Shown here one piece after another: positions 1,549-21,030 of a stretch of DNA of 21,030 bases (position 1 is its first letter; each line of letters starts with the position of its first letter). The notes below the pieces were generated by a model that was given only the letters and a program-made list of their open reading frames with translations, had not been told where the DNA came from and did not search any database. Source of the stretch: Eledone cirrhosa (taxonomy: Eukaryota); the NCBI GenBank assembly GCA_964016885.1, contig CAXHJY010001382.1, positions 1 through 21,030 of the forward strand, read 5' to 3'. Both the position numbers and the translations under genes were made by a program.

Positions 1549-1696
1549 GTCTCATATTAATGTGTATCAAGAATTAATGAACTACAATACTTTCTCTATT
1601 TCCATGAACTGAGATAAATTTCTCCACAAACAACGATAGAAAATACTTATCTACACACACGTATGTATACATATATATATATATATATATATATAA

Positions 1697-1797
1697 CAAA
1701 AGAGTCAGGACCCCGCCGGCTGAGCTCCGGCAGTTTCGACAGCTAGATCCGAACTCTGGTGCGTTATGGTTCACCTGGTCCATTACCACTCTTTCTT

Positions 1798-1800
<3 letters not shown>
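1697..1800 (-). repeat. Short interspersed repeat, family X copy 1
   Basis: Reverse complement aligns with 5617-5753 (AACCATAACGC...ATCTAGCTGTCGAAAC..GGAGCTCAG..TCCTGAC). Flanked by (TA)n on both sides. Strand is arbitrary. Confidence 0.8.
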
Positions 1801-1853
<53 letters not shown>

Positions 1854-2945: not shown

Positions 2946-2985
2946 GACATTTGCGTTTCGGACACTAGTCTTTCATCAGATGATA
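2946..2985 (-). ncRNA. Degenerate minimal hammerhead motif (PLE-like)
   Basis: Minus strand CTGATGA-aa-GAC-tagt-GTC-c-GAAAC-gcaaat-GTC; no helix I complementarity remains. Confidence 0.5.
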
Positions 2986-3284: not shown

Positions 3285-3330
<46 letters not shown>

Positions 3331-3342
3331 TAAACAAACCAC

Positions 3343-3519
3343 TATCCTGAGGGCTTCCAAAGTAACGGTCGCATTTTTAAAAGGGTACCTCAATGTCTAT
3401 TTATAAAACTGGTATATATTGTATTTTGTCTGATGAAGGCATACCATAATTTAACATGGTATCCTTGAAATATATATAATGAAATAAATATGGTTTTATA
3501 AATATAGTTTCCATTTGTT
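3343..3519 (+). mobile_element. ~175-bp HHR-bearing element, family H1 copy A (PLE pLTR/retrozyme-like)
   Basis: Aligns end to end with the reverse complement of 8348-8524 (TATCC...AGGGTA...TATTTATAAAAC...CTGATGA...TTTCCATTTGTT); (TA)n on both sides. Confidence 0.7.
3398..3504 (+). ncRNA. Type I hammerhead ribozyme
   Basis: CTGATGA 3430-3436; helix II ATACCAT/ATGGTAT plus AGG/CTT; GAAA 3467-3470; palindromic ATATATAT helix III; AUA site at 3478; helix I TATTTTGT/ATGAAATA, extended by TATTTATAAAACT/GGTTTTATAAATA. Confidence 0.8.
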
Positions 3520-3525
3520 AATATC

Positions 3526-3583
<58 letters not shown>

Positions 3584-3619
3584 TGTGTATATATACAGTA
3601 TATATATATATATATATAT

Positions 3620-3774
3620 GTTTATCTCGGGTTCAATCAGGGGTAACCACAGTAAGTAAGGTACTCAATACATAGCAGAGTATAAATATTTAATATAGAA
3701 ATGGCTTCTACAGGACTAGAACTGTTCTATTCGGGAGAAATCATTAGGAAGCCGACTGTCCTGTAGAATCCATT

Positions 3775-3783
<9 letters not shown>
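3620..3783 (-). mobile_element. HHR-bearing element, family H2 copy A (core mutated)
   Basis: Homologous to 13931-14081 in opposite orientation. Minus strand GGCTTC-CTAATGA-tttctcccgaat-AGAA-CAG-ttctagtc-CTG-TA-GAAGCC (3753-3703); 26-bp inverted repeat 3691-3716/3758-3783; (TA)n flanks. Confidence 0.75.
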
Positions 3784-3834
<51 letters not shown>

Positions 3835-3990
3835 TTGTTTGTGTGATTATGTGTATGTATTTGTGCGGGTTTGCGCGTATGAGTTTGTGCGTCTTTGCGC
3901 ATGTATTTGTGTATGTCAGCGTGTGTTTGTGAGCGCATACACGTAATCAAATGCCAATAGAAGCTGGTAACCATTAGAGAGTATCATTAT

Positions 3991-4178
3991 CGGTGGATTG
4001 GCAGTATCGGTAGAGGGTTGGACGCCATGCTTTCCAGCATAGTTACGTCCCTTTACGATCTGAGTTCAAATCCCGCCGAGGTAAACTTTGCCTTTCATCC
4101 TTACGGGGTCGATAAAATAAAGTACCAGTAATGCACTGGGATAATTGCTGGCCTTGTGCCTAAAGTAGAAACAATTAT
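3991..4178 (+). mobile_element. tRNA-derived SINE, short subtype
   Basis: A-box-like TGGCAGTATCGG, B-box GAGTTCAAATCC, core TTTGCCTTTCATCCTTACGGGGTCGATAAAATAAAGTACCAG shared by six copies in the window. Confidence 0.85.
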
Positions 4179-4195
4179 CATACCCACGTCAAAAT

Positions 4196-4410
4196 AATGA
4201 TTTCTAGTAGAGGCACAAGGCCAACAATTTTGGGGAGGGGAAAGTCGATTAAATCGACCCCAGTGCATTACTGGTGCTTTATTTTATCGACCCCGTAAGG
4301 ATGAAAGGCAAAGTTAACCTTGGCGAGATTTGAACTCAGACATGAAGAGCCATAACTCTATGCTTCAAAGCATGGTGTCTGACTCTCTAACGATACTGCC
4401 AATCCACGCC
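4196..4410 (-). mobile_element. tRNA-derived SINE, long subtype, with target-site duplication
   Basis: Reverse complement of the same family; direct repeat ATACCCACGTCAAAATAAT at 4180-4198 and 4415-4433. Confidence 0.9.
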
Positions 4411-4542
4411 CTAAATACCCACGTCAAAATAATAATTACAGAAACACACAGGTAAAGAGGGAGAGAGAGAGAGACACGAAATCCTGGAAGAAAGTTAGGT
4501 AGAGGAAAAGAGGGCGGGGCAAGAGAAAAAGACAAAAGAAAT

Positions 4543-4803
4543 TGAGTTAAAATAAAAATATAGGGACAGGTGGTAAAGGCTTGTGTCGGCATCTCCCAAT
4601 TCCTGCCAATGCTGTTGTGTGTTGTTGCACGTCTCAAAGAATCAGAAACAGTCCGTTAGTAATTTCCTGCTGCCGTATCAGAGGAAGTTTCGTTACAGCT
4701 GCATTCTTTGAAAGATGTTGACATTAGATAACTGAAAGAGATTATTTTTCTATTTGCATTTATTTAATAAATCATTGAATATGGTTTCACAAAATGGATT
4801 AAC
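4543..4803 (+). repeat. 261-bp inverted duplication, arm 1
   Basis: Reverse complement of 7214-7474; no mismatch found by eye. Confidence 0.92.
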
Positions 4804-4994
4804 TCGAAATGCAAGGAATACACTAGCTCCCATATTTATGCATTACACTTCATCACTATATATTACATATATATATAGTTTGTGAAGGTGAGTGGTCCAC
4901 GTTCGATTTGTGGTGTTTGCTATATGTTTGTAGACTGATTAGAACAATAACAATCTTGTTTAGGTATATTTATATATATATATATATATATATA

Positions 4995-5053
4995 GGAAAA
5001 AGTATGACCCCGACGGCAGAGCTCAAGCCGTTTCGACGGCTATTTCTGGACTG
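4995..5053 (-). repeat. Family X copy 2 (partial)
   Basis: GACCCCGACGGCAGAGCTCAAGCCGTTTCGACGGCTA aligns with GACCCCGCCGGCTGAGCTCCGGCAGTTTCGACAGCTA near 1709; (TA)n flanks. Confidence 0.7.
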
Positions 5054-5584
5054 TATATGTATATATATATATATATATATATACATATACATACAATAGG
5101 TAGAAAGGATAACACACTAGAGGAAGAGAGTGTGTGTTATCAATATACAGGGAAAACCACTAGTGTATGGAATCTATAAACTAATTTACAGGGACTAACG
5201 CGAGTCTATGACTCCATTAATTTATTTTGATATATATATATATATATAAGAAAGTAATGTCTTTTAGATTGTCCCACTCGTGTAAAATCATAAGAAAAGA
5301 AATTGAAAGTGTAACTGGAGTATTTTAAGAATATTTATTTACTTTATCAATTTTCACAATTCTTATAATTTTCAAAAATAAACACAAACCCCTCCATCTC
5401 TATTTTACTGCCAGCACCAACAATTTTGAAAGAGATGTGAACATGAAAGGACCTGTTATTTTTATCTAAAGTTAACGTTAAGACCCTCTTCCTGCTATAT
5501 CAAGCGTTAACCTAATACCTCTTCCATATACTGTACCGATTGTGTTGTTATTTCTGTTTACGTTTTACATACAGACACACACAC

Positions 5585-5616
<32 letters not shown>

Positions 5617-5618
<2 letters not shown>

Positions 5619-5753
5619 ACGAAGAGGGTGTGGTAAGATACCATGTCAACCATAACGCTCTAGAGTACTCGATACTTAGGGTATTAGAGTGGGTAATAGA
5701 ATCTAGCTGTCGAAACGGCTGGAGCTCAGACGCCGGAATCCTGACATTTTCCC
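5617..5753 (+). repeat. Family X copy 3, with ~30-nt insertion
   Basis: Aligns with the reverse complement of 1697-1800; (TA)n flanks. Confidence 0.8.
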
Positions 5754-5780
5754 TATATATGTATATATATATCTATCTAT

Positions 5781-6050
5781 CTAAGGCGGGTAAAATTCCC
5801 GAGATCCATGGACGAGTCCTCTCCAGCGGTCTCTGTCCCTCATTATCGCTGCCATGTCCTGCGTCTCCAACAGACCAGTGTCTGTCCTTAGGGCATCAAC
5901 ATACGTTAACCTTGGTCTTCCCCTTCTAGTGTGTCCATGTAGGGGCTCCCAAAGGAGCACTGAGTGCAATGTCAACTCTGGATGTCGGTGAGCATGTCCA
6001 GTTAACCTCAGTCTCCTCTGTGTCACTTTTGAGCTGACTTTTGAAATCAT
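5781..6050 (-). mobile_element. 5'-truncated RTE-clade LINE, 3' end of ORF
   Basis: Translation RRLRLTGHAHRH...LLWEPLHG...RGRPRLTYVDALRTDT...MRDRDRWRGLV matches the typical RTE-clade C-terminal motifs (RL..GH, RGRP, DR..WR); the stop runs straight into a (TAGA)n/(TA)n tail. Confidence 0.85.
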
Positions 6051-6741
6051 TATATATATATAATGATTCAGCATCCCTGTCTGCTGCCCCGTTCTATGAA
6101 AGGTGTGGCGTTCTTGTAACATTGTGACTCTGCTACACTGATTCATTTACTAGCTTACGTAAACTGGAGTTTAAATCATTCGGTTAACACAAACAATGCA
6201 ATATTCCTTAATGATGTCGAGGACATGTTCAACGCCAGTTTTGGAACATGTCAGCTTCGACATATTGTTCTAGTCTTGGAACAAAAAATAACTCTTCCCT
6301 ATGAGCAATCGATCTGCTAAAACTAGAAACCAACTGTCCATCAATTTACATCCTACTGTATTGAATACTCAACTATATTTGATAATGTAGTCCTCCATTT
6401 AGTCGTTTTATGATCAACAGCTGGGTGAATGTCCTGGCGTGCCAATCTCTAAGTTGGACGTAGGTCTACCTGGGCACGTAATCCGTTGTCTTAGTTCCGA
6501 GGTCAGGATAAATGGATAACTCAAAGTACGAGACCAAATCGGTGATTTTGTGGAAATATTTAAACTTCGGGGGAAATACAAAAAGAAACATGAAGAGAAA
6601 GAGACTGTGCAACAAATAATATTTTGCCGTCTGTGGACATGTTGGTCTAAAGTCCCACGAAATAGCCACACATCGCTGATAAAGTTCCTTAATTCTGCTA
6701 GCACGTTACATTTGATTACAAGGGTCTTGTGACAGAATAAA

Positions 6742-6775
<34 letters not shown>

Positions 6776-6776
6776 A

Positions 6777-6924
6777 CCGTATTTTCCGTCTTCGAGGACG
6801 CACCTTAATTTTGACAAACAAAAATTTGAAAAAAAATAATAAACAACTTTCGGCCTCTAGTACGCATGGTAGATTTTTGAGACTTATTTTAGGAAAAAGA
6901 GTAGCGTCTTCGACGCCGGGAAAT

Positions 6925-6928
<4 letters not shown>
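6777..6928. mobile_element. MITE of the Tc1/mariner superfamily (Tc2/pogo-like CCGTA termini)
   Basis: 25-bp TIRs CCGTATTTTCCGTCTTCGAGGACGC (6777-6801) and GCGTCTTCGACGCCGGGAAATAAGG (6904-6928), 20/25 match; TA on the right flank, set in (TA)n. Confidence 0.75.
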
Positions 6929-6967
<39 letters not shown>

Positions 6968-6977
6968 AGAGATATAG

Positions 6978-7014
<37 letters not shown>

Positions 7015-7117
7015 ATATATGTATAAAGATTTAGATTAATATACGAATATACGTTGATTTCGATCTCGTTGCTTACAACATGCTGAATGGAAATGCTGAA
7101 TGGAAAGTGGTTCTACG

Positions 7118-7168
<51 letters not shown>

Positions 7169-7213
7169 GAGATATAAAGAGATAGAGAGAGAGGGGGGCG
7201 TGTGGGCGCATTT

Positions 7214-7474
7214 GTTAATCCATTTTGTGAAACCATATTCAATGATTTATTAAATAAATGCAAATAGAAAAATAATCTCTTTCAGTTATCTAATGTCAAC
7301 ATCTTTCAAAGAATGCAGCTGTAACGAAACTTCCTCTGATACGGCAGCAGGAAATTACTAACGGACTGTTTCTGATTCTTTGAGACGTGCAACAACACAC
7401 AACAGCATTGGCAGGAATTGGGAGATGCCGACACAAGCCTTTACCACCTGTCCCTATATTTTTATTTTAACTCA
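7214..7474 (-). repeat. 261-bp inverted duplication, arm 2
   Basis: Reverse complement of 4543-4803. Confidence 0.92.
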
Positions 7475-7511
7475 CTTTGTTGTTCTCCCCACCACTCTCT
7501 CTCTCTCTCTC

Positions 7512-7568
<57 letters not shown>

Positions 7569-7856
7569 TCTGTATATATATGCAGAGGTTATATTTAATT
7601 TAAACATTTTTATAACTGATATAATATATATATTGGCTTCTTGCTCACATTAATTTCTCTATTTTCATTTATATATATATATATATATATATAATAACTT
7701 GTAATAATTCTTTACACACATCTCACTGTGTAACACATTTCTCTTTGTGTAATATATTTGCATTCGAGCTCAGAAGGAAATTCTCTATTCTTCTTTGAGC
7801 TAATACTATTATTATTATTACAGTGAACTGCGGAATACTCTTAATTCCGATCTTTG

Positions 7857-7888
<32 letters not shown>

Positions 7889-7912
7889 GAGAACAAAAGG
7901 TGGTTAAAAGAG

Positions 7913-8000
7913 TTCCATGTATTTTATTATGCGCATTTCAAAAACAAATATCATCATGCAATAATATTTGTGTTTTCATCAGATAAAACAGGAAGACATG
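7913..8000 (-). ncRNA. Type I hammerhead ribozyme (left palindrome arm)
   Basis: Exact mirror of 8103-8190; TCATCAG at 7976-7982; predicted cleavage after 7928. Confidence 0.85.
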
Positions 8001-8102
8001 ATATGAAGGTTAAAAAACACTTGTGGATAGTGCAGTTTTAAATCAACATATTTATGTTGATTTAAAACTGCACTATCCACAAGTGTTTTTTAACCTTCAT
8101 AT

Positions 8103-8190
8103 CATGTCTTCCTGTTTTATCTGATGAAAACACAAATATTATTGCATGATGATATTTGTTTTTGAAATGCGCATAATAAAATACATGGAA
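8103..8190 (+). ncRNA. Type I hammerhead ribozyme (right palindrome arm)
   Basis: TGTTTTAT-CTGATGA(8121-8127)-16-position helix II with one mismatch (8128-8163)-GAAA-TGCGCA-TA-ATAAAATA; helix III is the palindrome ATGCGCAT; AUA site at 8175. Confidence 0.85.
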
Positions 8191-8306
8191 CTCTTTTAAC
8201 CATCTTTTGTTCTTATATATTATGTATACTCCAGTCCTACAAATTGTAGAGTGCTTCTTATCCGATATCTGCATTGCTTTATTGTACTACAATAAAACTC
8301 ACCTCC

Positions 8307-8347
<41 letters not shown>

Positions 8348-8351
<4 letters not shown>

Positions 8352-8519
8352 AAATGGAAAGTATATTTATAAAGCCATATTTATTTTATTATCATATTTC
8401 AAGTGCCACCAAGGCAAATTATGGTGCGCTTTCATCAGATAAAATACAATACAGATTTGTTTTATAAATAAATAGTGACATACCCTGAAAAAAGACAACC
8501 TTAACGGTTGGAGCTTCCT

Positions 8520-8524
<5 letters not shown>
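8348..8524 (-). mobile_element. HHR-bearing element, family H1 copy B
   Basis: Diverged homologue of 3343-3519, bounded by (TA)n. Confidence 0.7.
8364..8470 (-). ncRNA. Type I hammerhead ribozyme
   Basis: Minus strand TATTTTAT-CTGATGA-AAGCGCACCA..TGGTGGCACTT-GAAA-TATGA-TA-ATAAAATA; 8-bp Watson-Crick helix I plus distal TATTTATAAA/TTTATAAATA; predicted site 8390. Confidence 0.8.
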
Positions 8525-8556
<32 letters not shown>

Positions 8557-10040: not shown

Positions 10041-10318
10041 GTCCCTATCATCAAATTACCTAAGACACCTCCAACGAGATATAACTTGGGTGAAGCCAGC
10101 TGAACCTGCATAGGTGTGAGCTGTCACACACATTTAAAAGTGTCTCCCACTCCAAAAATAGGTTTAGTCAGTCTGACAGATTTCCACATCGTTTATATCA
10201 ACTCAGTTTGACTCAAAAGGAGTTATCGAGTTAAGAACAGCCTGATTGAAAAGCGAACTTATTAAGCAAAAATTTTACTTACTGCCCTGTGTTTTTATTA
10301 TAAGATATCAACTAAGAA

Positions 10319-10533
10319 CGGTGGATTGGCAGTATCGGGAGAGGGTCGGACGCCATGCTTTGCAGCATAGAGTTACGACCCTTTATGATCTGAGTTCAAA
10401 TCTCACCGAGGTTAACTTTGCCTTTCATCCTTATGAGGTCGATAAAATAAAGGACCAATCATGCACTGGGGTCGATTTAATCGACTTTCCCCATCTCCAG
10501 ATTTTCCGACCTTGTGCCTATTTAAGAAAATAA
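10319..10533 (+). mobile_element. tRNA-derived SINE, long subtype, with target-site duplication
   Basis: Same family as 4196-4410; TATAAG(A/G)TATCAACTA at 10299-10314 and 10534-10549. Confidence 0.88.
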
Positions 10534-10767: not shown

Positions 10768-11408
10768 ATTATATATATGTATATAGGGGCGGTGAATTGG
10801 CAGTATCGGTAGAGGGTCGGACGCCATACTTTCTAGCATAGTTACGTCCTTTTACGGTCTGAGTTAAAATCTCGTCGAGATTAACTTTGCCTTTCATCCT
10901 TACGGGGTCGATAAAATAAAGTACCAGCAATGTACTGGGTATTTGCTGGCCTTGTGCCAATAGTAGAAACAATTATATATATGTATATATAAGGGCGGCG
11001 AATTGGCAGTATCGGTAGAGGGTTGGACGCCATACTTTCTAGCATAGTTACGTCCTTTTACTCTCTGAGTTAAAATCTCGTCGAGATTAACTTTGCCTTT
11101 CATCCTTACGGGGTCGATAAAATAAAGTACCAGTAATGTACTGGGTAATTGCTGGCCTTGTGCCAATAGTAGAAACAATTATATATATGTATATATAAGG
11201 GCGGCGAATTGGCAGTATCGGTAGAGGGTTGGACGCCATACTTTCTAGCATAGTTACGTCCTTTTACGGTCTGAGTTAAAATCTCGTCGAGATTAACTTT
11301 GCCTTTCATCCTTACGGGGTCGATAAAATAAAGTACCATAATAATGTACTGGGTAATTGCTGGCCTTGTGCCAAAAGTAGAAACAATTATACATATATGT
11401 ATATATAT
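10768..11408 (+). mobile_element. Three head-to-tail SINE copies (short subtype), 206-bp period
   Basis: Units start at ~10787, 10993 and 11199; near-identical, joined by ATTATATATATGTATATA linkers. Confidence 0.92.
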
Positions 11409-11629
11409 ATACAACGACAACGACGTTTATGGTGACAATGGAGACTAAGTCAGCCATCTTGCCTGAGAAACGCTGTGGCTAATTTCGCATAACATAATAT
11501 TGATGTGTTTTTCTTGTTTCTGTTGTTGTTGTCTTTTGTTTCTCCCAACCTGTCAAGTCTTAACATTCATTAAATATAGCTCTAGAAAACGAAATACTTA
11601 ATGCAATGCTGGACTTTTGTTTTATTACA

Positions 11630-13430
11630 ATGGTTGTTATTGATGCTGTTGTCGTCGTAGTGGTGGTCGTCGTTGTTGTTGTCGTTGTTGCTATTGTTAT
11701 TGTTGTAGTTGTTGCTGTTGTTGTGGTTGTTGTTATTGTTTCTATTATTGTTGACGTTGCTGTTGTAGTCTTTGTTGTTGTTGTTGTTGTTGTTGCGGTT
11801 GTCGTTGTTGTTGTTGTTAATGTTGTTATTGCTGCTACTGGTGATGATTTTGTTGTTGTTGTTGCTGTTGTCGTTGTTGTTGTAGTTGTTGCTATTGTTG
11901 TAGTTGTTGCTGTTGTTGTGGTTGTTGTTATTGTTTCTATTATTGTTGACGTTGCTGTTGTAGTCTTTGTTGTTGTTGTTGTTGTTGCTGTTGTCGTTGT
12001 TGTTGTTAATGTTGTTATTGCTGCTACTGGTGATGATTTTGTTGTTGTTGCTGTTGTCGTTGTTGTTGTAGTTGTTGCTATTGTTGTAGTTGTTGCTGTT
12101 GTTGTGGTTGTTGTTATTGTTTCTATTATTGTTGACGTTGCTGTTGTAGTCTTTGTTGTTGTTGTTGTTGTTGTTGTTGCTGTTGTCGTTGTTGTTGTTA
12201 ATGTTGTTATTGCTGCTACTGGTGATGATTTTGTTGTTGTTGTTGCTGTTGTTGTTGTAGTTGTGGCTATTGTTGTAGTTGTTGCTGTTGTTGTGGTTGT
12301 TGTTATTGTTTCTATTATTGTTGACGTTGCTGTTGTAGTCTTTGTTGTTGTTGTTGTTGCTGTTGTCGTTGTTGTTGTTAATGTTGTTATTGTTGCTACT
12401 GGTGATGATTTTGTTGTTGTTGTTGCTGTTGTCGTTGTTGTTGTAGTTGTTGCTATTGTTGTAGTTGTTGCTGTTGTTGTGGTTGTTGTTATTGTTTCTA
12501 TTATTGTTGACGTTGCTGTTGTAGTCTTTGTTGTTGTTGTTGTTGTTGTTGTCGTTGTTGTTGTTAATGTTGTTATTGCTGCTACTGGTGATGATTTTGT
12601 TGTTGTTGCTGTTGTCGTTGTTGTTGTAGTTGTGGCTATTGTTGTAGTTGTTGCTGTTGTTGTGGTTGTTGTTATTGTTTCTATTATTGTTGACGTTGCT
12701 GTTGTAGTCTTTGTTGTTGTTGTTGCTGTTGTCGTTGTTGTTGTTAATGTTGTTATTGCTGCTACTGGTGATGATTTTGTTGTTGTTGCTGTTGTCGTTG
12801 TTGTTGTAGTTGTTGCTATTGTTGTAGTTGTTGCTGTTGTTGTGGTTGTTGTTATTGTTTCTATTATTGTTGACGTTGCTGTTGTTGCTGTTGTTGTCTT
12901 TGTTGTTGTTAATGTTGTTATTGCTGCTACTGGTGATGCTTTTGTTGTTGTTGACGTTTTTGCTTTTGTTGTCCTTGTTGTTGTTATTGATGTTGTTGTT
13001 GCTATTGTTGTTGTTGTTGCTGCTGCTGTTGTTGCTGCTAGCGATGCTTTTGTTGTTGTCGTCGTTGTTGCTGCTGCTGCTGTTGTTACTGCTGTTGCTG
13101 TTGTTGCTGTTGCTGTTGTTGTTGTTGTGGTTTCTGTTGTTGTTGTTGCTTTTGTTGTTGCTGTGGTTGCTGTTGCTGTTGTTGTGGTTGTAGCTGTTGT
13201 TGTGGTTGTGGTTTCTGTTGCCGTTGTTGCTGTTGCTTTTGTTGTTGTTGCTGTTGTTGCTGTTGTTGTTGCTGTTGTTGTGGTTGTAGCTGTTGTATGT
13301 TGCTGTTGCTGCTGCTGTTGCTGTTTCTGCTAATAATGCCACTGTTGCTGTTGTTGTTGTTGCTGCCGTTGCTGCTGCTGCTGTTGTTGTTGTTGTTGTT
13401 GCTGCTGGTAATGTTTCTGTTGTTGTTGTC
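11630..13430. repeat. (GTT)n-derived higher-order satellite
   Basis: Marker ACTGGTGATG at 11837, 12026, 12218, 12398, 12584, 12764 and 12929 (spacing 165-192 bp), decaying into cryptic GTT/GCT. Confidence 0.92.
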
Positions 13431-13858
13431 ATTGCTAGTGTTCTTGTTTTACATTTTAATCATTTAATAATATTATCCATTTATTTTTCAAACATAAACG
13501 GAAATAACGTTGTTTTCATTATCACCTGCACATCAATTTCAGAGAAGAACAATAACTGTTGTTGCTGCTGTTGGTGTTGTTGTCGTTGCTCTTGTTGTTG
13601 GTGGTGTTGTTGTTGTCGTTGCTCTTGTTGTTGGTGTTGTTGTTGTTGTCGTTATTATTTTTCAGCAAAGTAATACAAGGACACATGGAGACATATGTGT
13701 AGCACACACGTACCCATACATAGATACATGGGTACACACACATACTGGAGAGAGAGAGAGAGAGAGGGGAGTGAGATAGAGAAAGATACACACGTATATA
13801 TATATATATATATATATACATAAATCTCTCTACATATATATAATATATACACATACAG

Positions 13859-13930: not shown

Positions 13931-14081
13931 TTAATGTAGAAAGGCTTCTACAGGACTGATGATTTCTCCTGAATGAAACAGTTCTAGTCTTGTAGAAGCC
14001 TTTTTACATCAAATATTTATACTCTGCTCTGTATTGAACACCTTACTTACTGTGGTTATCCCCGATTGTACCCGAGATAAA
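13931..14081 (+). mobile_element. HHR-bearing element, family H2 copy B
   Basis: CTGATGA 13956-13962, GAAA 13975-13978, helix III ACAG/TTGT, GUA site 13994, then GAAGCC; about 11 nt holding the 5' strand of helix I are missing relative to copy A; inverted repeat 13934-13957/13986-14009; (TA)n flanks. Confidence 0.78.
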
Positions 14082-15819: not shown

Positions 15820-15900
15820 ATATATATACAATATATATACAATATATATACATACTATATATATATACATACTATATATATATACAATATATATATATAT

Positions 15901-15936
<36 letters not shown>

Positions 15937-16298
15937 ATATATATATATACAATATATATATATATATATATATATACAATATATATATATATATATATAC
16001 AATATATATATATATATATATATACAATATATATATATATATATATACAATATATATATATATATATACAATATATATATATATATATATACAATATATA
16101 TATATATATATACAATATATATATATATATATATATATACAATATATATATATATATATATACAATATATATATATATATATATATACAATATATATATA
16201 TATATATATACAATATATATATATATATATATACAATATATATATATATATATACAATATATATATATATATATACAATATATATATATATATATACA

Positions 16299-16329
<31 letters not shown>

Positions 16330-16335
16330 ATATAT

Positions 16336-16371
<36 letters not shown>

Positions 16372-16662
16372 ATATATATATATATATATATACAATATAT
16401 ATATATATATATACAATATATATATATATATATATACAATATATATATATATATACACAATATATATATATATATACACAATATATATATATATATATAC
16501 AATATATATATATATATATACAATATATATATATATATACACAATATATATATATATATATACAATATATATATATATATATACAATATATATATATATA
16601 TACAATATATATATATATATACAATATATATATATATATATACAATATATATATATATATAT

Positions 16663-16698
<36 letters not shown>

Positions 16699-17041
16699 AT
16701 ATATATATATATATACAATATATATATATATATATACAATATATATATATATATATATATATACAATATATATATATATATATACAATATATATATATAT
16801 ATACAATATATATATATATATACAATATATATATATATATATACAATATATATATATATATATACAATATATATATATATATATACAATATATATATATA
16901 TATATACAATATATATATATATATATATACAATATATATATATATATATACAATATATATATATATATACAATATATATATACAATATATATATATATAT
17001 ACAATATATATATATATATACAATATATATATATATACAAT

Positions 17042-17072
<31 letters not shown>

Positions 17073-17311
17073 CAATATATATATATATATATACAATATA
17101 TATATATATATATACAATATATATATATATACAATATATATATATATATACAATATATATATATATATACAATATATATATATATATACAATATATATAT
17201 ATATACAATATATATATATACAATATATATATATATACAATATATATATATATACAATATATATATATATACAATATATATATATATACAATATATATAT
17301 ATATATATACA

Positions 17312-17342
<31 letters not shown>

Positions 17343-17588
17343 ATATATATATATATATATACAATATATATATATACATACAATATATATATATACAATA
17401 TATATATATATATATACAATATATATATATATATATACAATATATATATATATATACAATATATATATATATATACAATATATATATATATACAATATAT
17501 ATATATATATATATACAATATATATATATACACAATATATATATATATATATATACAATATATATATATACCCAATATATATATATAC

Positions 17589-17640
<52 letters not shown>

Positions 17641-17676
17641 ATATATATATATACACAATATATATATATATACACA

Positions 17677-17707
<31 letters not shown>

Positions 17708-18287
17708 ATATATATATATATATATACACAATATATATATATATATACACAATATATATATATATATATACAACATATATATATATATACAACATATATA
17801 TATATATATATACAACATATATATATATATATACAACATATATATATATATAGAATATATATATATATACAATATATATATATATATATATATACAATAT
17901 ATATATATATATATATACAATATATATATATATACAATATATATATATATATACAATATATATATATATATACAATATATATATATATACAATATATATA
18001 TATATACAATATATATATATATATATACAATATATATATACAATATATATATATATATATATACACAATATATATATATATACAATATATATATACAATA
18101 TATATATACACAATATATATATATATACAAATAATATATATATATACAATATATATATATATACAATATATATATACAAACAATATATATATATACAATA
18201 TATATATATATACAATATATATATATACAAACAATATATATATATATACAATATATATATATATACAAATAATATATATATATACAA

Positions 18288-18320
<33 letters not shown>
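15820..18320. repeat. [(TA)n-CAA]m compound satellite
   Basis: About 2.5 kb of TA runs punctuated by CAA and variants. Confidence 0.95.
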
Positions 18321-18321
<1 letters not shown>

Positions 18322-18389
18322 CGAATGAAACAATTATAGTCTGTAGAAATCTGAATAAAATGAAGATACACACACAGACACACAAACAC

Positions 18390-20149
<1,760 letters not shown>

Positions 20150-20741
20150 GGTGGCTGCCAACTCGTTTTCGAGTACGGCCACTACTTTATATCCATGTAG
20201 GAGAACCCCTACCGATGCGCCAAACAAGTGTGACTTTTTAGTCCAGCCAGCGACTTGAAAACTCTGGTACAAACACTACACCTGTGACAATTATTGACAC
20301 ATAGTGCTGGGCCCATGGCACCATGTGACGACAAGTGCAGAGAGATCTCCAGATATAAAGCAATGCCTGTGCCGTGAAGCTTTTATAGTGAGCAAAGGCA
20401 CTGCACAAAGCCAGTCCCACTCTCTTAACCAAGATGATATTTACCAAAAAGAAGAACGAGTCAACATCATTGGATACCATCAGGGTTGCAGGTGTTATAT
20501 CAGAGTTTTCCTTCTCCTAGAATTCTGCCTTGACAAAGGCTAACGGGTCATCTCTCCCGGTGATTTTGGATGGCCATTGACTCTTAAGAGCTCCTTTGCC
20601 GTTTGACAGGTTTTGTTTTTAGTCCTGCAGGATGCCCAAAGTCACCCTCCTCACCATGAAACCTTGGAGTCGCCAACGACCCGACCATGAGACAGGTTGT
20701 ACTGGGATACATGTTGCCAGTAGCACCAACTGGTGACCTGA
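20150..20741 (-). mobile_element. Probable internally deleted (bipartite) non-autonomous RTE-BovB-type element
   Basis: Minus strand: motif CTAGGAGAAGGAAAACTCTGA (~20521-20501) that I recall from RTE 5' UTRs; C2H2 finger [23 protein letters not shown] (20280-20209); terminal stem-loop GTGGCCG-T-ACTCG-AAAA-CGAGT-TGG-CAGCCAC; then (AT)n. Confidence 0.65.
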
Positions 20742-20809: not shown

Positions 20810-21030
20810 GGGGGGGGGGGGTAAAATTCCAGAGATCCATGGACGAGTTCTCTCCAGCGGTCTCTGTCCCTCATTATCGCTGCCATGTCCTGCGTCTCCA
20901 ACAGACCAGTATCTGTCCTTAGGGCATCAACATACGTTAACCTTGGTCTTCCTCTTCCATTGTGTCCATGTAGGGGCTCCCACAGGAGCACTGAGTGCAA
21001 TGTCAACTCTGGATGTCGGTAAGCATGTCC
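20810..21030 (-). mobile_element. RTE-clade LINE 3' end, second copy (runs off window)
   Basis: About 8 substitutions in ~210 bp relative to 5789-5999; ends in a C run followed by (TA)n. Confidence 0.88.

Follow-up and report, generated by a model that had tools for sequence, protein, structure and literature searches.

Does the stretch of DNA presented here, positions 1 to 21,030 of contig CAXHJY010001382.1 of Eledone cirrhosa (the window, at its full length), carry genuine hammerhead ribozymes, and from which kind of genetic element would they come? The window is eukaryotic DNA rich in microsatellites, with many short repeats lying between (TA)n tracts, and it holds four complete type I hammerhead motifs: at 3430 (+), copy A; at 8438 (-), copy B of the same family; at 8121 (+), copy C, from another family that shares this type of core; and at 7982 (-), an inverted mirror of C that was absent from the preliminary description of this DNA. 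These motifs are genuine, and they are members of a many-copy repeat family with a conserved catalytic core. They are found close to the 3' ends of short repeats, present in many copies and set in (TA)n tracts. We consider it quite probable that these repeats are the pseudo-long terminal repeat (pLTR) ends of Penelope-like elements (PLEs), or non-autonomous derivatives of such elements; their RNA would cut itself 3' of AUA, probably in dimeric form.

All four copies present the core C3 U4 G5 A6 N7 G8 A9, G12 A13 A14, the pair A15.1-U16.1 and H17, scored on the core definition given in Perreault 2011 (PMC3088659). The pair listing places three helices around this core, helix I being open-ended and pairs 1.1-2.1 and 10.1-11.1 both present; for copy A, another fold is predicted to be the most stable. 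One might invoke fortuitous pairing in AU-rich DNA, or an artefact of assembly, to account for such motifs: helices form readily in AU-rich sequence, the fold z-scores are modest (-2.9, -1.6 and -0.8), and one random match of the pattern arose in an AT-rich viral contig, where it was rejected for want of helix II pairing. However, the structure descriptor, with its four matches in the window, matched none of 300 random 14-kb sequences of matched dinucleotides, the core pattern alone was observed five times in the window against 0.17 expected, and the family is present in independent sequencing runs and in two other organisms. The descriptor statistics and these independent runs already refute the explanation by chance or artefact, to which we grant practically no credit. 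Pattern scans elsewhere returned nothing in further viral contigs, in metagenomes (0 and 0) or in prokaryote genomes. No hammerhead family stands among the Rfam matches listed (150 of 168, and 43 of 43 for the copy A region), all of which are sub-threshold and mostly correspond to microRNA hairpins on microsatellites and on the palindrome of C.

Copies A and B are clearly diverged, as the preliminary description had it, and the divergence is uneven: 138 of 179 positions are identical between 3343-3521 (+) and 8347-8524 (-), with 34 of 55 in the 5' flank versus 90 of 108 in the hammerhead domain (Fisher p=0.003). CTGATGA, GAAA and the AUA site are kept in both, and helix I counts 8 base pairs (bp) in each, two G·U pairs of A being A-U in B, which again agrees with what had been announced. 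The distal helix beyond an internal loop was also recovered: it counts 12 bp in A, and in B, which has lost one pair, 10 bp. The description had overlooked a bulged G and a middle helix of 6-7 bp that separate helix I from this distal helix. Helix II is indeed different but paired, with a G·U/A-U change at one pair and, if one G of B is treated as a bulge, changes of both partners at two others (A-U/G-C and U-A/C-G); the terminal pair closing the loop is lost in B. The positions that had been put forward for a G5A control, 3478 and 8390, turn out to be the cleavage nucleotide A17 of each copy; G5 lies at 3432 and 8436. Loop III of B has 3 nucleotides and lacks self-complementarity; this is probably a private loss of one nucleotide, because a B-like piece in run X7, from another organism, aligns ungapped across loop III. 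We also observe that A (3343-3388, +) and B (8479-8524, -) share a 5' start motif, possibly a structured 5' boundary; in each of the two predicted folds (z 0.6 and -2.0) it pairs with a motif situated about 40 nucleotides downstream.

To place the two copies within their family, the copy A region (3335-3524) was compared with 4 of the 23 listed runs, among which no RNA run figures, at a likeness of at least 80%. Two runs from the same organism yielded 4,028 contig pieces (X1) and 28,028 raw reads (X21); runs X5 and X7, from two other organisms, yielded 4 and 9 pieces. Counts of pieces and reads are not copy numbers; X21 was made by reduced representation, and X1 possibly comes from the very sample that gave the window. 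The 4,028 pieces of X1 set against 4 and 9 in the other organisms, together with the occurrence of both A-like and B-like forms in X7, suggest old subfamilies and a lineage-specific expansion. The summed depth of X1 drops from 3.9 million at 3489-3495 to 15 at 3349-3355, that is towards the 5' end, and 13,137 X21 reads run past 3519 into a shared sequence (agreement 0.82) with a short CTCCAAAA motif, also found 5' of an X7 copy.

The variants of this family bear directly on the selection on ribozyme structure that had been proposed for the source elements. Within 3398-3504, and for variant frequencies of at least 1% in X1, no position varies among the 12 of the fixed core or the two of helix III, as compared with 3 of 52 in the helix I arm, 8 of 20 in helix II and 8 of 21 unpaired; these statistics rest on 40 listed of 46 variants, which are unphased, and the 80% filter favours conserved reads. 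Relative to unpaired positions the difference reaches p=0.03 for the fixed core and p=0.0014 for the helix I arm, and is null for helix II (p=1.0). Within the core, variation is restricted to N7, a position that hammerheads leave free and that shows T>A in 24 contigs, and the three common variants of the helix I arm all keep their pair. The invariant fixed core, the freedom of N7 and the pairs kept by common helix I variants support, at the level of sequence, selection on the ribozyme core in source elements. The proposal thus stands for the core; it does not extend to covariation, which is not established, nor to helix II, as variable as unpaired positions. Several observations indeed weigh against a simple covariation of the helices, and some of them against our reading of the family. 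In an AU-rich pair, 56% of random transitions leave the pairing intact, which gives p ~0.17 for three kept out of three, and no double-sided change occurs in helix I among the listed variants. In helix II, 7 of 10 listed variants break the copy A pair, and the variants 3444A and 3459A break a C-G pair; on the other hand two of the seven are halves of the double changes of B, and the loose-end consensus lines have G opposite 3462C. Lastly, the unpaired 3' end (3505-3519), with one listed variant, is as conserved as helix I, so that paired segments are not alone in varying little. In loop III, the common change 3474 A>G retains, by eye, self-complementarity through G·U. As for the G·U pairs of copy A, they are family-wide states and not private decay, since G is the majority or about half of the X1 depth at 3428, 3438 and 3481. 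Apart from these variants, the X21 loose ends before 3457 give a consensus (1,044 reads, agreement 0.52) in which U3 and A8 occur together, a weak and unphased signal; a U3/A8 covariation of the core is among the features described for Schistosoma PLE hammerheads.

A10.1-U11.1 starts helix II in A, B and C, as had been noticed: these pairs are confirmed, the register with an unpaired A after A9 being worse by 4.4 (A) and 5.5 (B) kcal/mol and giving, by eye, no pairing in copy C. It is a real and common state in the family, neither fixed nor new. It is not fixed, because 13 contigs carry C at 11.1, and G stands at 10.1 in a loose-end line drawn from 40 contigs (agreement 0.65); besides, the pair 10.2-11.2 occurs in the compatible states G·U, A-U and G-C. 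Nor is it new: in Fig. S3 of PMC4209133, counted by eye in a text form where the GAAA column is detached, the 56 PLE hammerheads have 43 G-C, 8 G·U, 3 A-U and 2 U-A at 10.1-11.1, A17 in 6, AUA in 2 and no extra base in 2. Thus the "AU-rich variant" that the three copies were thought to define cannot be maintained as a novelty. U·U at the helix II base is moreover reported for Amex2 of axolotl in the account of Cervera & de la Pena 2020 (PMC7229834), and the definition of Perreault 2011 (PMC3088659) accepts any 10.1-11.1 pair and reports U·U. Copy C shares with A and B the 3' strand of helix I and the AUA junction, as was said; its helix II, different and longer, is less unrelated than it had been taken to be, because A, B and C all follow one plan of 3 bp, a mismatch with C at 10.4 and a long stem. 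About 40 nucleotides separate every motif from a 3' end, which passes into (TA)n.

Table 1. Hammerhead-bearing elements of the window, their parts and their immediate setting (positions of the whole stretch; arms of the C pair compared by BLAST alignment).
Feature	Position	Strand	Details
Copy A, short repeat flanked by (TA)n tracts	3343..3526	+	carries the type I hammerhead
Copy A, helix I arm, 5' strand	3398..3429	+	distal helix at 3398-3409 (12 bp), internal loop, middle helix at 3415-3420 (6 bp), bulged G3421, then helix I at 3422-3429
Copy A, core CUGAUGA	3430..3436	+	G5 = 3432; N7 = 3434, only core position with a listed family variant
Copy A, helix II	3437..3466	+	A10.1 (3437)-U11.1 (3466), 3 bp, C·C mismatch, 7 bp, 8-nucleotide loop
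Copy A, GAAA, 2-bp helix III, self-complementary loop, AUA site	3467..3478	+	predicted cleavage 3' of 3478
Copy A, helix I arm, 3' strand	3479..3504	+	pairs with the 5' strand
Copy B, same family as A	8348..8524	-	77% identical to A; core 8438-8432, helix II 8431-8401, GAAA 8400-8397, A17 8390, loop III 3 nucleotides
Copy C, different family with same core type	8053..8228	+	core 8121-8127, helix II 8128-8163, GAAA 8164-8167, GCGC loop III, A17 8175
Inverted mirror of C, head-to-head with C	7875..8050	-	98.3% identity over 176 bp; core 7982-7976, A17 7928
Extension on one arm only of the C pair	8229..8309	+	candidate Penelope-type tail
(TA)n tract between C and B	8310..8347	.	like tracts: 3289-3328, 3527-3618 (interrupted), 7857-7882, 8522-8551

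In their general design the motifs resemble the metazoan PLE hammerheads with a small palindromic helix III figured in PMC4209133, by the type I topology, CUGANGA and GAAA, a large helix II, a palindromic 15.2-16.2 and a helix III of 2 bp. The closest published rows are those of Drosophila willistoni, which has A10.1-U11.1, U15.2-A16.2, AUA and a palindromic loop as here, and of Marsupenaeus japonicus, where A10.1-U11.1 goes together with an A17 site and the inserted nucleotide is lacking. A10.1-U11.1 also occurs in Latimeria family 2. In contrast to these PLE hammerheads, published with a helix I of 2-6 bp, helix I counts here 8 bp, to which A and B add a further 6-7 and 10-12 bp; the fourth pair of helix II is a fixed mismatch, the inserted nucleotide is lacking and no PLE open reading frame (ORF) was seen. 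The Poseidon PLE of Anolis, PAc, as presented in Frangieh et al. 2024 (PMC11167929), has a hammerhead in its pLTR, AT-rich targets and an optional tail, as here; its ORF begins at stem II, whereas frames starting from the core ATG close here, by eye, within ~12-22 codons.

On this basis the following course may be proposed. The RNA of the source element would fold into a hammerhead whose helix III of 2 bp is too weak alone, and for that reason two copies would pair through their self-complementary loop III, a dimer design that sections of PMC4209133 and PMC3088659 present for metazoan repeat and PLE hammerheads. Closing helix III in the monomer is predicted to cost ~3-4 kcal/mol, and the predicted self-duplex of the 15.1-16.1 segment amounts to -3.2 kcal/mol for A, -10.5 for C and +0.2 for B; a PLE-type palindromic 15.2-16.2 and loop III, with a minimal helix III, is likewise found in A and C and not in B. 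Self-cleavage would take place 3' of the AUA site, probably in this dimer form. A PLE protein with reverse transcriptase and GIY-YIG activities would then copy the RNA into AT-rich targets, with a start close to the TA-rich 3' segment of the element itself and frequent early stops. Selection would act in the source elements, the copies of the window being presumably mostly passive and B probably crippled by its loss of one nucleotide in loop III.

The insertion traits argue for a PLE origin. Among those described for PLEs in PMC8557442 are inverted 5'-truncated partners, optional tails and a (TA)n bias, and the hammerhead account of PMC4209133 adds the palindromic 15.2-16.2, the large helix II and head-to-head pairs; we find here a 5' depth gradient with loose ends, the inverted C pair, its one-arm extension and (TA)n flanks. 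Certain data nevertheless count against this origin. No reverse transcriptase or GIY-YIG gene was seen beside any copy (ORF list by eye, Pfam on 5781-6743 only), so that we infer PLE membership from structure alone. The G10.1-C11.1 and the extra base after A9 of the PLE consensus (Cervera & De la Pena 2014, PMC4209133) are not found here, although published exceptions exist; an extra nucleotide between A9 and 10.1, absent in A, B and C, is present in 54 of 56 published representatives, and our helix I is far longer than theirs. The 5' depth drop may partly reflect divergence beyond the 80% filter. Within the monomer ensemble the helix I pairs of copy A have a probability of ~1%, a slipped fold being favoured by 7 kcal/mol; the corresponding probabilities are 0.04-0.46 for B and 0.54-0.83 for C. 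Finally, PMC11167929 indicates for the one PLE reconstituted in vitro that the hammerhead required protein in order to cleave, and that insertion could proceed without this cleavage. As an aside, the 5' end of copy A was considered as a GIY-YIG ORF end (YPEGF, versus YPLGLN of Naiad proteins) and discarded, being kept neither in B nor in family variants; ten short motifs of the window are absent from the Craig 2021 supplement.

The main rival reading, which we hold to be doubtful without being negligible, is that the A/B family consists of strict non-LTR retrozymes, with a unit of 180-400 nucleotides, tandem source arrays and circular RNA, the window copies being solo monomers. The chemistry would be that of the PLE reading, the unit being its own element and not the end of a coding PLE. 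Animal non-LTR retrozymes, in what PMC7229834 and the preprint of Li, Clavereau & Pollet 2026 report of them, share with our motifs a short AT-rich non-coding unit bearing a type I hammerhead, whose helix III is weak and palindromic; according to that preprint (bioRxiv 10.64898/2026.07.22.740005) they elsewhere include solo monomers, which are common, and derive from PLE pLTRs. The common 5' motif at which A and B start, the long helix I and missing inserted nucleotide—nearer to canonical metazoan type I hammerheads—and the X21 reads extending past 3519 with shared sequence all speak in the same direction. However, no tandem copy or unit was found within the window, no joint from a 3' end to a 5' start is listed in the runs (diverged 5' parts would escape detection), and the C pair, joined head-to-head and extended on one side only, shows the insertion pattern of PLEs. 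Both readings overlap, the retrozyme being itself PLE-derived, and for that reason our confidences in them do not sum to one. Less probable, in our view, is that the motifs are inherited relics, whose helices would be kept by the youth of the copies, or as a protein-binding or priming site, without selection for cleavage. The absence of double-sided change in helix I with three of three pair-keeping variants at p ~0.17, the equal conservation of the 3' end and the in vitro insertion without cleavage cited above (PMC11167929) would fit it; on the contrary, the core varies at N7 only, and the whole core is kept by subfamilies 62% alike in their 5' flank, and by the family of copy C. It is just as improbable that a lineage-specific burst of a hammerhead retroelement took place in which the inserted nucleotide was recruited into an A-U replacing G10.1-C11.1, this replacement being made good by a novel tertiary contact in which the fixed C-mismatch of helix II meets the bulge of a 25-bp helix I arm, which might have made an efficient AU-rich hammerhead and circular RNA.

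Other repeats of the window include a further hammerhead family at 13934-14000 (+) and 3620-3783 (-), whose copies are 82% alike, with a 13-bp helix I, a GUC site, U10.1·U11.1 and a fold z of -6.2, the core of the second copy being decayed. Three related short (TA)n elements at 1695-1802 (-), 4995-5059 (-) and 5617-5755 (+) have GAAA, a long near-palindromic helix III, GUC intact in one and no intact CUGANGA; they are possibly decayed or split-core hammerheads. At 2956-2979 (-), with a related stretch at 5486-5565, there is a hammerhead core that has a short helix II and the extra base typical of PLEs, and whose helix I does not pair. Repeats resembling short interspersed elements (SINEs) occupy 3977-4404 (a head-to-head pair), 10318-10520 and 10786-11390, and include a three-unit tandem of ~210 bp; ARAGORN finds no tRNA in them, and we take them to resemble octopus SINEs. 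Two copies of one reading frame, at 5781-6050 (-) and 20818-21030 (-), presumably resemble the C-terminus of an RTE-type long interspersed element protein (no Pfam match); Pfam gave nothing significant on 5781-6050 or on the six frames of 6063-6743. An inverted pair of another repeat of ~150 bp lies at 4561-4710 (-) and 7310-7470 (+), and the window also has a long GTT-based minisatellite array at 11560-13450 and ~4.3 kb of TA-based repeats at 15850-20150.

Altogether no new ribozyme class is defined by these motifs, and the family belongs to a known kind of hammerhead: A10.1-U11.1 and the AUA site are already known from the PLE hammerheads of flies, shrimp and coelacanth, A10.1-U11.1 being present in 3 of the 56 rows of PMC4209133 and accompanied by AUA in that of D. 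willistoni. What appears from the sequences to be particular is the long helix I arm of the A/B family, and the fixed helix II mismatch common to A, B and C. Our literature search, whose reach did not extend to subscription papers, Repbase/Dfam and Lunse 2017, returned no paper on the A/B family, nor on cephalopod hammerheads beyond 235 Rfam matches in giant squid, and the available text of the O. vulgaris repeat paper mentions no ribozyme. The present work thus adds a large hammerhead-bearing repeat family, in a type of genome for which that search gave no hammerhead study. Its natural variants constitute a ready mutational scan of the departure from G-C at 10.1-11.1, and they could also show whether the hammerheads of PLEs are selected for cleavage.

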